Assembly (NCBI GenBank): GCA_965222225.1
Contig: CBDCTK010000002.1
Coordinates: forward strand, 896,001 to 960,000
DNA: 64,000 nucleotides
From: Candidatus Poribacteria bacterium
Lineage (GTDB): Bacteria > Poribacteria > WGA-4E > JAJDTR01
Direction of reading: 5' to 3'
Shown: positions 1 through 3,018 of the stretch, in pieces
How positions within the stretch are numbered: the first letter of the stretch is position 1
Layout of the letters: each line of letters opens with the position of its first letter
The notes under the pieces: generated by a model
The model's database searches: none
What the model saw: only the letters and a program-made list of their open reading frames with translations
What the model was told of the DNA's origin: nothing
Translations under genes and position numbers: made by a program

Positions 1-621
1 GGAGTCGACGGCCTCTGCAATACGATTTTGGACTTCAGGCGGTGAAAACGGCACTCTCAACGCCCGAACTTGGTATAGATCGATATTATCTCTGGCACCT
101 CCTGACTTTATTCGATCAAAAACTGTTTGAAATGGATCTGAATTTAAAACTGTACATAACCAATGAGGATTTACAACTCTTGAAGGTCTTATGAGACACA
201 CCGCTTGATTGATATTCGCAGATTCGAATCTATCATAGACACAACTCCTGCCAATTGATGCACCCACAATATTTAGCAAAACATCCCCTTTTTGCAATTG
301 CGAACGCCTCATCCGTTGGTGTACGTCATCATCAATACAAACCCTTTTGCTCAACGAAAGGGATCCTGCCAATACATTTTCACTTTTTACAAACAGAATC
401 CCTTCATCTTTGTACTCGTCTCCCTTCCATAAAGGGGTTTCTCCCTTGGTAATAGCGGTAGAAATTGCCCGAAGTCTAACTAGATCGAACTTGCTTGAAA
501 GTATTCTTTCGCGATTTTCAATGAAAAATGGCTTATAGAAATCCACGCCAAACGTATCTTCAAGTTGGCCCTGATTGAGGATAAAAATCTGACTTTCCCA
601 ATCAGGGCTTACGCGAAAAAA
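1..621 (-). CDS. Restriction-modification specificity (S) subunit / target recognition domain; partial, runs off the left edge; probably reached by -1 frameshift from the upstream RM gene
   Basis: Manual translation gives an open frame from ~630 to 1: ...SPDWESQIFILNQGQLEDTFGVDFYKP...ITKGETPLWKGDEYKDEGILFVKSENV...LQKGDVLLNIVGASIGRSC...NINQAVCLIR...LRVPFSPPEVQNRIAE, typical of Methylase_S/HsdS TRDs. There is no ATG near the 5' end and an in-frame TGA lies just upstream. Confidence 0.85.
568..621 (-). promoter_or_regulatory. Candidate programmed -1 ribosomal frameshift signal (slippery heptamer plus stimulatory stem-loop)
   Basis: The mRNA reads GGT TTT TTC GCG TAA GCCCTGATTG GGAAAGTCAGATTTTTATCCT CAATCAGGGC: T_TTT_TTC at 621-615, a 6-nt spacer, and a perfect 10-bp inverted repeat at 608-599 / 577-568. 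Confidence 0.65.
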
Positions 622-2893
622 CCTGGGTCTTCATGTGAGAACCTGCGGTATTCATTGTAGATTGTGTGGAGATCGTTAATCGGGTCCTTTCGGCCCGTTG
701 CATCATAGCCGATACGCTCGGCAATTGCCATAAAGATTGGATTGTTGGCGTTTTCCTTAATCCATTTACGGATGTCTTCAGCGTTCTTGTCCGCCAACTC
801 CTCTTTAACCACGTCAATCTTCTCCTTGTATTTCGCTTTAACCTCGCGCTCCCACTCCGAATCGGCAGCGGCTTTGAATGCCTCGCGATATTCCTTCTCA
901 AGAGTGCCAAGGTCGGCCGTATGTTCTCTCAGTTGAGCGCGCGCTGTCTTCAATTCATATGGCCCAACTTCCCGAACGGTTTGGGAGGTTTCGTCGCGAA
1001 CGAAACGGCTCCGCAGTGATTGAACCTTTTTCGCCGGTTCTTTGCCAAGTTTCTGGTTCAACTCGTCAATAAGATCCAAGATTGCCCGAAATCTTGGTTC
1101 AAACTGTTCTGTGGCTGCGGCTTGTGGTCGACATCCGCGATTGAGTACCAATTTCCGCTCATCCTCAAGTTCCCGGAACCGCCGCGCATATAGTGCTTCA
1201 TTCCTTCCTTTAACCTTATCGATGTTCGCTTGATAAAGACCATACTCCTCTTGTGAAAATTTACGCAAAAACAGTATTGATGGCTTCACCCCTGCGCCGT
1301 AGTGCGAAAAAGCGGTTTGAGGGAGTGAGACGACCGCAAGGATTTGGAAATGTCCTTCGATGTAATCCCTTACGTACTGCAACGAGGAGTTGGTCAGAAT
1401 TCCGTCGGGCAAAATGATTGCGAGTGTTCCTGTCTTCCATTTGAGAAAATCAAAACATCGTTCCAGAAACAGAACCTCTGTTTTTTGAGAAGCGTATTTC
1501 CTCCCAAGTTCATAATCAGCTAGATATGGCGATTCGTCCTTCTTTACGACCGCCCCGAACGGTGGATTGGTGAGAATTACGTCAAATCTCTCTTTATTAA
1601 AACCACTATGCTGGTTGTTGAGGTCATCGAAATTCACCAGCCCGTCGCTACCGATGACATTGCTGTGCCCGTCATCATGGATAATCAAATTCATCTTGGC
1701 GACGCGGGCAATAGAATCGTTGACCTCAATCCCGAAAAGCCGTTTTCGGCGAAATCGTGCCAGTGGGTATAATGTTCTCTGCTATCTTCGGAGTAGTATT
1801 CAGATGCCTCTGTCCGAATGTAATCCATCGCGTGTAACAGAAAGCCACCCGAACCACACGCTGGGTCGAGAATTCTATCTTCATGGTGCGGTGTAACCAT
1901 CTTGACCATGAACTCAACGACCTCGCGCGGCGTGAAATATTGCCCCATATCACCCCTGAAATAGTTTCCGAGAAATCGCTCGAAGGCAATCCCCTTCACG
2001 TCCAAGTCAGTCCGATTCAAATCGATTCCTTGTAGGTGATTCACAACCGAAAATAATCTAGCATCATCAACCCGAATATCCTCTGTAAAGACCTCTGGGT
2101 CTTGTGCTTTGGCTTCCTGATACAATCTGTTGATTCGGTGCGCAACCGATTCAGGGCGTTCACGCGTTTTGATTTGAAAATCGTAGGGCTCGCCCCTCCG
2201 TCTAGCCTTTTTTTCATCCCGAACTTTGACAAAAAGAATTTTGGAGAGTTCATTAAACGCGACCGTCGGTTCAAGCCTGCCCCCCTGCCAAAGTGTATCA
2301 TGGCATTTTTCAAGGGCACGGATGAGATCGTCTCTTTCAACGACCTGTAAATCCCAATCGGGGTCACCTGTCCGATATCGCCATTCGGAGACTGAACCGT
2401 ATCGAACCGGAACATCTGCGATGATGTTTTGGACGCGTTCAAGCGGTTGATGACCTTTAACCTCAAAGAAGCGCCTAGTATTTCCCGCAACAACAGCCGC
2501 GTAGTCTCCGGATAAAGAGTTACAATTCCCGAAAACCTGTTCAATTGCCTGATTGAATTCTGCTTCAGAAATCCTGTCTTTTTTGCATTCTACTACGATG
2601 AAAGGAGTTAGCCGGTCATCGTCCATGAAGACGACCAGATCAGCCGAATCACTTGGTGTCCGACGCGGGACAGTAACCTCCAAGCCCATCGCGTTTTCCG
2701 AATACTGATATCGCTCAATTAACTCGACATAATATCTTGCCCGGACTTGTTCTTCAGGATTGGCAAATCTGTATCTTTTGTTTTGAGCGACATAACGGAT
2801 TGTTGTCCCTTCATTACGGATTGTTGTCCCTTCATTAAGGAACTGGATGTAGCCTTTCCGCTCTCCGATCTGAACAAAATCAATCTGTTTCAT
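609..2893 (-). CDS. Fused restriction endonuclease / N6-adenine DNA methyltransferase (Type IIG/IIB-like; HsdR N-terminal-type nuclease plus N6_Mtase), split by an apparent 1-nt deletion at ~1745
   Basis: ORF 1691-2893 has PEEQVR, ADLVV...IVVECK (PD-(D/E)xK), GQYFTPR and ILDPACGSGGFL. ORF 609-1694 has NPPFG, ILPDGIL and IGYDATGR. Adding one A to the GAAAA run at ~1743-1746 restores AEKRLFGIEVNDSIARVAKMNLIIHDDGH. RBS GAGGAG at ~2902-2908. Confidence 0.88.
2795..2836. repeat. 21-bp in-frame tandem duplication (NEGTTIR x2) in the RM gene N-terminus
   Basis: acggattgttgtcccttcatt occurs at 2795-2815 and 2816-2836. Confidence 0.95.
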
Positions 2894-3018
2894 TGATGTT
2901 TCTCCTCGCTCGACGTACCTTTCACTGCGTGCTAGCTAATTTGGGGTGTGGGTTCCTACGGTAATAAATGGCGCCAACCCTATGGCATCAAGATTGAGAT
3001 TGCGTCATTTGAAGAGGG

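Follow-up and report, generated by a model that had tools for sequence, protein, structure and literature searches.

A specificity subunit without a start codon: probable programmed −1 ribosomal frameshifting in a Type IIB-like restriction-modification system

How can a cell make the specificity subunit of a restriction-modification (RM) system when the reading frame for that subunit has no start codon of its own? The question is raised by a locus at the beginning of the stretch of DNA analysed here, 64,000 nucleotides (nt) from a Candidatus Poribacteria bacterium whose genome measures 5.70 Mb in two contigs. We refer to this whole stretch (contig CBDCTK010000002.1, G000:C2:896001-960000 in our notation) as the window, and all coordinates in it are read on the minus strand. 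The gene that we call RM, for a joint nuclease and adenine methyltransferase, is followed there by a reading frame for a specificity subunit, S. The S frame lies in −1 relative to RM, covers positions 621 to 1 and runs on beyond the window start to G000:C2:895191; it has 475 codons and encodes two target recognition domains (TRDs). We propose that ribosomes enter S by slipping back one nucleotide at the end of RM. To judge from the comparison of related loci, a programmed −1 ribosomal frameshift is the best explanation of this arrangement, and we hold it to be probable.

The anatomy of the junction is as follows. The RM frame ends ...GAA GAC CCA GGT TTT TTC GCG TAA, with a run of six T (T6) at 621-616. 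Read in the RM frame (GG-T TTT TTC), this is the slippery heptamer T_TTT_TTC (621-615). The next 6 nt, the spacer GCG TAA (614-609), consist of the final codon of RM and its stop (611-609); a hairpin of 41 nt (608-568) follows, in which a G+C-rich stem of 10 base pairs (bp), GCCCTGATTG (608-599) with CAATCAGGGC (577-568), is supplemented by inner pairs. An earlier note on this DNA had described the heptamer, the 6-nt spacer and the 10-bp stem with an extension by GGA/TCC; the minus-strand reading bears all of this out, the extension being made over a 1-nt bulge. The RNA of 640-555 (86 nt) folds at −26.6 kcal/mol (z −2.95), and 2 of 200 shuffles fold as well. The 64-kb window has a single copy of the extended motif TTTTTTCNNNTAAGCCC, where 0.01 would be expected from shuffles. 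No Rfam family matched positions 400-900, where the search returned one chance-level snoRNA match (E 0.23). Translated in the −1 frame, the junction gives F F R V S P D W E S Q I F (FFRVSPDWESQIF). Both arms of the hairpin lie within the S frame, with the linker SPDW encoded by the 5' arm and NQG, at the start of the first domain, TRD1, by the 3' arm. The earlier note had also placed S in the −1 frame, closed by a TGA upstream and lacking an ATG. This too is correct: the TGA stands at 633-631, three codons upstream of the T run, and the first ATG, GTG or TTG of the S frame is a GTG at 546-544, 24 codons past the heptamer. Many relatives, too, have a stop in the S frame a short way upstream of the heptamer.

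The earlier note had cautioned that T6 might be a miscalled T7. The assembly is in long-read style (2 contigs), and the same gene holds another homopolymer indel, both of which would suit a miscall. We compared four public runs over positions 1-3000: X1, probably the source sample, with a word depth of about 100; X3 and X4, from two other studies, with contigs about 99.5% identical to the window, a depth of about 3 and spans of 307-2316 and 1-1955; and X7, which contributed raw Illumina reads. At 615-621 the X1 contig is identical to the window, and the X3 and X4 contigs span the site with no indel. The check rests on contigs, in which rare variants are hidden, the X7 reads falling outside 501-700. 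The two independent studies concur on T6 while differing from the window at the other indel, and the same T6 is present in about 100 other assemblies, many of them Illumina-built. T6 is genuine, and we attach next to no probability to a sequencing or assembly artefact.

Does RM end at this place in other genomes? A search for longer proteins gave 5888 matches, of which the 120 listed share 65-79% identity with RM. Among these 120, 119 are 751-798 amino acids (aa) long and one has 914 aa; 115 end in F-F-x, three (P0012, P0039 and P0059) in D-S-F-G, and two otherwise. RM homologs thus end where the window RM ends, and RM is therefore not a truncated form of a gene for a single-chain enzyme with its own specificity part (RMS). 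Gene callers halt at a stop codon with or without frameshifting, so that the DNA of the junctions had to be inspected. This was done for a set of 36 Poribacteria loci and for two wider scans of 80 loci each, picked by RM protein similarity alone and coming from many phyla. In Poribacteria, 35 of the 36 loci show GAT or GGT, then TTT TTC (or TTT), one codon, a stop and GCCC[T/C]GAT; the remaining locus, L040, is an in-frame fusion. In the second wide scan, 70 of 80 loci have the T6 heptamer with the stop one codon further on, and in L161 the stop is immediate. The pooled loci with a determinable RM end number 194, and 126 of them have this cassette, in 108 distinct junctions.

Selection on the heptamer appears, from these junctions, to act at the nucleotide level. 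To avoid circularity, junctions were classed by protein tail. Of 176 distinct ones, 108 have the tail x-F-[F/L]-x-stop, and 107 of these 108 retain NNT TTT, against a background in the same open reading frames (ORFs) of T in 0.22 of comparable third positions and of TTT in 0.45 of Phe codons. The residue before the heptamer Phe varies (P 60, D 30, S 7, L 6, R 3, G 1, A 1), with the wobble T constant. The codon at the ribosomal A site is TTC in 97 junctions, TTT in 6 and TTA in 5, and the RM stop is TAA in 82, TGA in 13 and TAG in 13. Directly after the heptamer, the S frame has an Arg codon in 96 of 107 junctions, using all of CGT, CGC, CGG and CGA, while the overlapping RM residue varies (V 54, A 29, G 20). 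In L016 the RM stop has changed from TAA to TGA, which in the S frame is a synonymous Val change. The S frame thus seems to be selected from the first codon after the heptamer. Separately, a Shine-Dalgarno-like 4-mer lies 9-11 nt upstream of the heptamer in 43/108 junctions, where it arises from K/R-D codons (AAG GAC CC). With only 43 such loci, an upstream stimulator of this kind was rejected as a general feature; some members of the clade may use it as an additional stimulator, and it is weak or absent in the window.

The hairpin is kept together with the heptamer. In 102 of 107 junctions a stem of five or more uninterrupted pairs begins exactly 6 nt past the heptamer. The hairpins span 47 nt in 46 junctions, 41 nt in 30 (the Poribacteria type), 44 nt in 10 and 50 nt in 7, and the remaining five junctions, in an alignment judged by eye, have stems one base later or short local hairpins. 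In the Poribacteria stems 99.3% of 300 cells are paired, with nine one-sided wobble-type changes and two unpaired cells, and the only double change is the window's own, from A-U to U-A. Taken by itself, the Poribacteria stem is too conserved to be informative. Covariation was assessed across phyla, in a MAFFT alignment of 108 sequences scored against a named structure with an outer helix of 10 bp and an inner one of 8 bp; because of bulges, the inner hairpin could not be paired without gaps. Paired cells amount to 79.4%, compared with 68.6% in shuffles (reached by 0/500) and 39-53.5% with slid partners. Changes on both sides are present in 240 cells, compared with 110.5 ± 9.6 in shuffles (again 0/500), and the covariation score is 0.312, compared with 0.169 in shuffles and 0.08-0.13 with slid partners; since the sequences are related, these figures are descriptive and not probabilities. 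The closing pair of the stem is G-C in 76 junctions, C-G in 22, G-U in 3 and another in 5, and it switches between G-C and C-G at least four times on a FastTree tree of 111 RM proteins. The 60 nt that follow the spacer fold with a median minimum free energy (MFE) of −26.5 kcal/mol; the quartiles lie at −31.8 and −22.0, and the weakest junction reaches −16.7. Control windows have medians of −10.4 (300 nt into S) and −15.1 (inside RM). In the relatives both arms are coding, as in the window: the 5' arm encodes the linker, S/T-P-A/D, and the 3' arm the conserved ...V-K/R-R-G at the start of TRD1. It seems, since both arms code, that pairing with the beginning of the domain has shaped the linker. 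The homolog comparison suggested in the earlier note, which looked for a conserved heptamer, stop and hairpin with compensatory stem changes, has thus come out favourably.

The T6 run might serve RNA polymerase instead of the ribosome. If the polymerase added a U at U6, the resulting U7 mRNAs would encode RM-S, which is the same product. DNA variants with T7 or T8 exist (L194, L195, L040), and homopolymer runs are known sites of transcriptional slippage, A7 and U7 being mentioned as such (PMC4066793). Yet the run is kept at six in 97 of the 108 junctions and not lengthened, and the T_TTT_TTA variants (5/108) hold the register of the ribosomal heptamer. The conserved, covarying hairpin stands at the 6-nt spacing that is typical of ribosomal frameshifting, and it cannot act on transcriptional slippage, because it forms only after the polymerase has moved on. 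Efficient transcriptional slippage in bacteria, moreover, usually needs longer runs. We regard this explanation as quite unlikely.

A further explanation starts from a single-chain RM-S gene that is ON with T7, and takes T6 as its OFF state or as a frameshift mutation in it. The RM gene of the window does contain another real 1-nt indel and a 21-nt duplication, the T7 fusions L194 and L195 exist, and single-chain RMS enzymes are known, making up 8 of 16 Type IIB systems (PMC11997821). Phase variation or decay must nevertheless contend with T6 and a stop in 107 of 108 distinct junctions from 18 named phyla, isolates included. It also leaves unexplained why the hairpin covaries and why the stop is kept one codon past the run. 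The contigs of X1, X3 and X4, which would hide rare variants, contain no length variant of the T tract, and six bases are short for a contingency tract. We consider phase variation or decay of this kind very improbable.

Could S be made as a separate protein, from a start that lies close to the RM stop? The earlier note had named independent S starts, or plain fusions, as what homologs might have instead of the conserved junction. Only six relatives are fusions, and within −30..+45 of the RM stop an S-frame ATG occurs in 6/108 cassette loci, only GTG or TTG in 36/108, and none of ATG, GTG and TTG in 66/108. In 43/108 cassette loci there is no canonical start between the upstream S-frame stop and +45, and where starts are present their positions are scattered. 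By comparison, relatives without the F-F tail, with a downstream ORF of at least 150 aa, have an ATG in −30..+45 in 43/53 loci, mostly as ATGA- or TAATG-type overlaps. Two recurrent GTG codons of the S frame were rejected as starts. The one at −40 is a by-product of Q-W in RM (CAG TGG) and is often separated from the heptamer by an S-frame stop; the one at +38 (Val of C-F-A-V) is present in only 20/108 loci.

Ribosomes that have terminated at the RM stop might reinitiate on the NUA codon that overlaps it or, in Poribacteria, on an AUU in the hairpin loop, with the hairpin serving the coupling. The −1 offset is indeed that of an ordinary ATGA overlap, the codon over the stop is ATG in 4/107 cassettes and GTG in 1/107, and the relative L160 starts S at a stop-overlapping ATG. 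The loop ATT (Ile of Q-I-F) is present in 29/30 aligned Poribacteria-type junctions, L015 having GTT. As a start it was rejected, being confined to Poribacteria-type cassettes and absent across the other phyla. In most of the 107 junctions the codon overlapping the stop is no usual start (GTA 42, CTA 39, ATA 10, TTA 4). Reinitiation furthermore leaves unexplained the wobble T and TTT of 107/108 junctions, the Arg codon upstream of the supposed start, and the loss of the heptamer in L160, exactly where the ATG arises. A separately made S is thus improbable as the general explanation, and programmed frameshifting accounts better for the junction.

The few relatives that depart from the cassette are instructive. 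Six of them are in-frame RM-S fusions: L040 (T8), a Poribacteria locus with a fused frame of 1212 codons; L194 and L195 (T7); and L135, L149 and L156. The junction of L156, ...LFFSVSPA, is the transframe peptide predicted for its sister L069 (= L155), which has a T_TTT_TTA cassette, and that of L149 reads ...PFSVSPD. The lone exception to the heptamer is L160, from Ignavibacteriota, where CCA TTT TTC GTA TGA has an S-frame ATG over the stop and S begins M-N-P-I-G-E-N-N-L-E-C-F-A-V. On the RM tree, L135, L149, L156 and L160 each stand singly within cassette clades, and they are therefore derived from cassette ancestors. The MFE of their downstream 60 nt is −14.7 (L135), −10.6 (L149), −19.2 (L156) and −12.6 kcal/mol (L160); three of these are weaker than the weakest cassette, and L156 is weak but inside the cassette range. 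To all appearances, then, the hairpin decays where frameshifting is no longer needed. The simple T7 fusion that the earlier note had envisaged for the window is absent from its contigs, and T7 fusions are rare among relatives, namely L194 and L195. S may be split in L135 and L156, where the fused frame extends for about 250-270 codons into S and another ORF then begins at an ATGA or GTGA overlap.

The RM gene of the window is itself damaged, upstream of the junction. Its 5' part (2893-1691) is a 400-codon ORF that encodes the PD-(D/E)XK nuclease domain HSDR_N_2 (Pfam, E 1.2e-12) and the start of the N6-adenine methyltransferase (N6_Mtase, profile positions 4-72). Its 3' part (1757-609) encodes the rest of the methyltransferase, with TNPPF (profile positions 78-236), a long helical C-terminal region and the tail ...EDPGFFA before the stop. 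The 5' frame ends early, at a TGA at 1693-1691, because of a 1-nt deletion, which splits the methyltransferase between motif I and NPPF. The earlier note had suspected a homopolymer indel near 1745; the indel is real and strain-specific, and it is located in the A4 run GAAAAC at 1746-1743, where relatives have A5, rather than in the T run beside it. Behind 1742 the X3 and X4 contigs are longer by one base, which restores the RM frame to ...HDFAEKRLFGIEVN..., and the consensus of 31 homologs at the 1743-1746 site is the same HDFAEKRLFGIEVN. The X1 contig is without the extra base, and the three Illumina reads of X7 that cover 1742 match the window. A second sign of decay is a 21-nt tandem duplication in the RM N-terminus (2795-2836), with NEGTTIR encoded twice; the X3 and X4 contigs are without these 21 letters. 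Deletion and duplication alike are real lesions specific to this strain, whose RM gene is broken. With RM broken by the deletion, the copy in the window is probably not working now, and the window probably holds a recent pseudogene, or a recently damaged member of such a system. The ATG of the downstream RM piece overlaps the premature TGA (ATGA, 1694-1691).

In an intact locus of this kind, frameshifting might proceed as follows. Ribosomes at the last RM codons would pause with tRNA-Phe on UUU and UUC, held there by the hairpin 6 nt ahead. Most of them would read one more codon and terminate, giving free RM. A fraction would slip by −1 on U_UUU_UUC, read CGC GUA AGC... and pass through the hairpin into S, giving an RM-S fusion with the junction ...PGFF-RVSPDWESQIF.... 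Free RM and RM-S could then assemble into the equivalent of the (RM)2S complex of BcgI and BsaXI. The efficiency of frameshifting may in this way set the (RM)2S stoichiometry, a notion that leans on the analogy with BcgI and BsaXI and with the EcoKI fusion discussed at the end.

Several observations weigh against programmed frameshifting, or reduce the force of the evidence for it. The window's own RM frame stops at 1693-1691, for which reason the heptamer of this strain would be reached by few ribosomes. Coding accounts for some of the T run, F-F being itself a conserved tail of the protein, but not for the choice of codons or for the wobble T before them. The three homologs that end in D-S-F-G have a tail that would break the T run. 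The conserved G after the heptamer could be used by either frame, and free variation of the 3' arm of the hairpin is limited, because this arm encodes the conserved R-G of TRD1. In the cassettes with ATG or GTG over the stop, coupled reinitiation may contribute. The locus counts overstate independence, since the loci are related and much transferred, and the support for frameshifting comes entirely from comparison and folding.

How widely is the arrangement distributed? The closest loci are from Candidatus Poribacteria, where RM is found (E <= 1e-30) in 41 of 176 genomes of the phylum. It occurs in 33/112 and 7/29 genomes of two other Poribacteria families and was not found in 10 other genomes of the window's own family. 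The cassette is present in at least 18 named phyla, isolates included, plus Bacteroidota and Balneolota. Phyla are thoroughly mixed on the RM tree, and OZ242325.1 has two copies with near-identical junctions, a pattern which indicates that the system moves horizontally. Cultured carriers include Microcystis ichthyoblabe FBCC-A1114, Chlorogloea sp. CCALA 695, Novosphingobium mangrovi HK4-1 and Paracoccus sp. NSM. In the plasmid collection there were only distant RM relatives, with 30-42% identity, in 5 records. Next to S in the genome of the window, and outside the window itself (G000:C2:893255-895057, or L202:9255-11057, minus strand), lies a gene for a protein of 600 aa with Mrr_cat and TIR_2 domains, and beyond it an ORF of 537 aa that matches nothing in Pfam; in L077, too, S is followed by an Mrr_cat ORF. 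The Mrr_cat neighbour may reflect a small defence island or a recurrent partner.

A scan of genome contigs for the cassette pattern yielded a second, unrelated gene pair. The scan gives no prevalence: about 140 chance matches are expected, and about 29 of the 80 matches listed lie in short ORFs and look like chance. Among the same 80, 23 belong to a Bacteroidota gene pair, apparently from prophages, in which a Portal_Mu gene ends ...FF-x-TAA and a Phage_Mu_F-like gene follows in the −1 frame, some copies of the latter having C-terminal LPD3 or PBECR2 domains. The layout of T_TTT_TTC, a 6-nt spacer and a GC-rich hairpin is that of the RM-S cassette, and 7 of the 23 listed pairs are without ATG, GTG or TTG up to +90. 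The pair is found in L206, L208, L213, L218, L223, L226, L228, L229, L232, L235, L236, L239, L241, L246, L251, L256, L260, L268, L270, L271, L277, L278 and L281. On this layout it looks like another case of −1 frameshifting, and a search of the literature found nothing obviously about frameshifting in a portal-MuF pair.

To our knowledge, programmed frameshifting in bacteria is well established in few kinds of genes only, mostly insertion sequences and phages. The earlier note knew of no description for RM systems, and none was found in the literature that we searched, whose scope left out subscription journals and the GeneTack/Sharma supplementary cluster tables. A term search of the main text of Antonov et al. 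(2013; PMC3711429) returned only the phase variation of type III methyltransferases, a term search of the first 300,000 of 449,034 characters of the review by Atkins et al. (2016; PMC5009743) returned no case of frameshifting in an RM system, and one Mycoplasma paper concerns DNA repeat-mediated frameshifts only. Taking all the comparisons together, it is likely that a large, horizontally spread Type IIB-like clade, in at least 20 phyla, has given up the start of S and makes RM-S only by −1 frameshifting on U_UUU_UUC with a coding hairpin. The RM:RM-S ratio would then be fixed by RNA structure, the subunits would assemble in the (RM)2S manner, and this would be the first recoding event built into an RM system. 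If so, a conserved frameshift in an anti-phage defence system of many phyla would form a new functional class. It would change the annotation of loci in which an "N-6 DNA methylase" is now followed by an S gene called truncated or start-less, or which are taken for frameshifted pseudogenes. It would also explain how subunits can be kept at 2:1 with no second promoter or second ribosome-binding site, and would link the RM + S and the fused RMS architectures of Type IIB enzymes through a natural intermediate. The claim is directly testable, since the cassette is short, its parts are easily mutated and cultured carriers exist.

Which known systems does the locus resemble? Pfam finds HSDR_N_2 and N6_Mtase in the two RM pieces of the window taken together, as in the intact homolog P0004. 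The best match of the intact RM homolog in the PDB is RM.BsaXI (8w0p, E 3.1e-38), followed by Type I M subunits. The 475-aa S frame has Methylase_S (Pfam) in two stretches and also matches solved S subunits; NCBIfam MAD5-like and type I S models align over its full length, and the best PADLOC models are Type I methyltransferase for RM and Type I S for S. No helicase or ResIII domain was found in short, sampled flanks, comprising 7 flanking ORFs in the window's own genome and 10 ORFs at 6 other loci. On these matches we describe the locus as a two-gene Type IIB-like RM + S pair. The best NCBIfam models are those of MADS, MAD2 for the intact RM homolog (E 1.1e-92) and MAD5 for S (E 8.6e-26), with scores far below the respective cut-offs (311.4 against 720 bits, and 90.8 against 400 bits), and no multi-gene MADS-like set was found in the sampled neighbourhoods.

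The closest parallels to the junction come from mobile elements and from dnaX. In −1 cassettes of the IS3/IS911 and dnaX type, an X_XXY_YYZ heptamer is followed by a short spacer and a downstream stem-loop. In OrfA/OrfAB of the IS3 family, the 0-frame stop comes close after the heptamer, the −1 ORF has no start and the long product is a fusion. The window locus has the same heptamer, short spacer, stem-loop and start-less −1 ORF. It differs in that the genes concerned are defence genes, the heptamer is U-rich and not A_AAA_AAG, the stop lies within the 6-nt spacer against the stem, and both arms of the stem code for the linker and the downstream domain. H_HH.U_UU.Y is among the best −1 heptamers in Escherichia coli, with tetramers ranking A_AA.G >> U_UU.C > U_UU.U, and U_UU.U_UU.C is among the heptamers found in insertion sequences (PMC4066793).

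With BsaXI and BcgI the locus has in common an N-terminal PD-(D/E)XK nuclease, an N6-adenine methyltransferase and an S subunit with two TRDs. BsaXI is described as an (RM)2S complex, and the known Type IIB systems compared in that source divide evenly into RM + S (8/16) and single-chain RMS (8/16) (PMC11997821); for BcgI, an A:B subunit ratio of 2:1 is given. BsaXI is described as having two reading frames, with subunits that were expressed separately (PMC11997821), whereas S here is without a start and one locus would give both RM and RM-S. From the single-chain RMS enzymes the locus differs by the in-frame TAA at 611-609, present in three data sets, which interrupts RM and S. In EcoKI the M gene overlaps the start of S and the two are translationally coupled, and an engineered M-S fusion (Roberts et al., 2012) is reported to work in vivo and, in vitro, to cut only when free M is added (PMC3510504). 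The assembly logic that we propose for RM-S and free RM is the same as in that fusion. The EcoKI fusion, however, was engineered, and S of EcoKI can initiate by itself; the S frame of the window is start-less, and its fusion to RM would arise naturally, in a fraction of the ribosomes.

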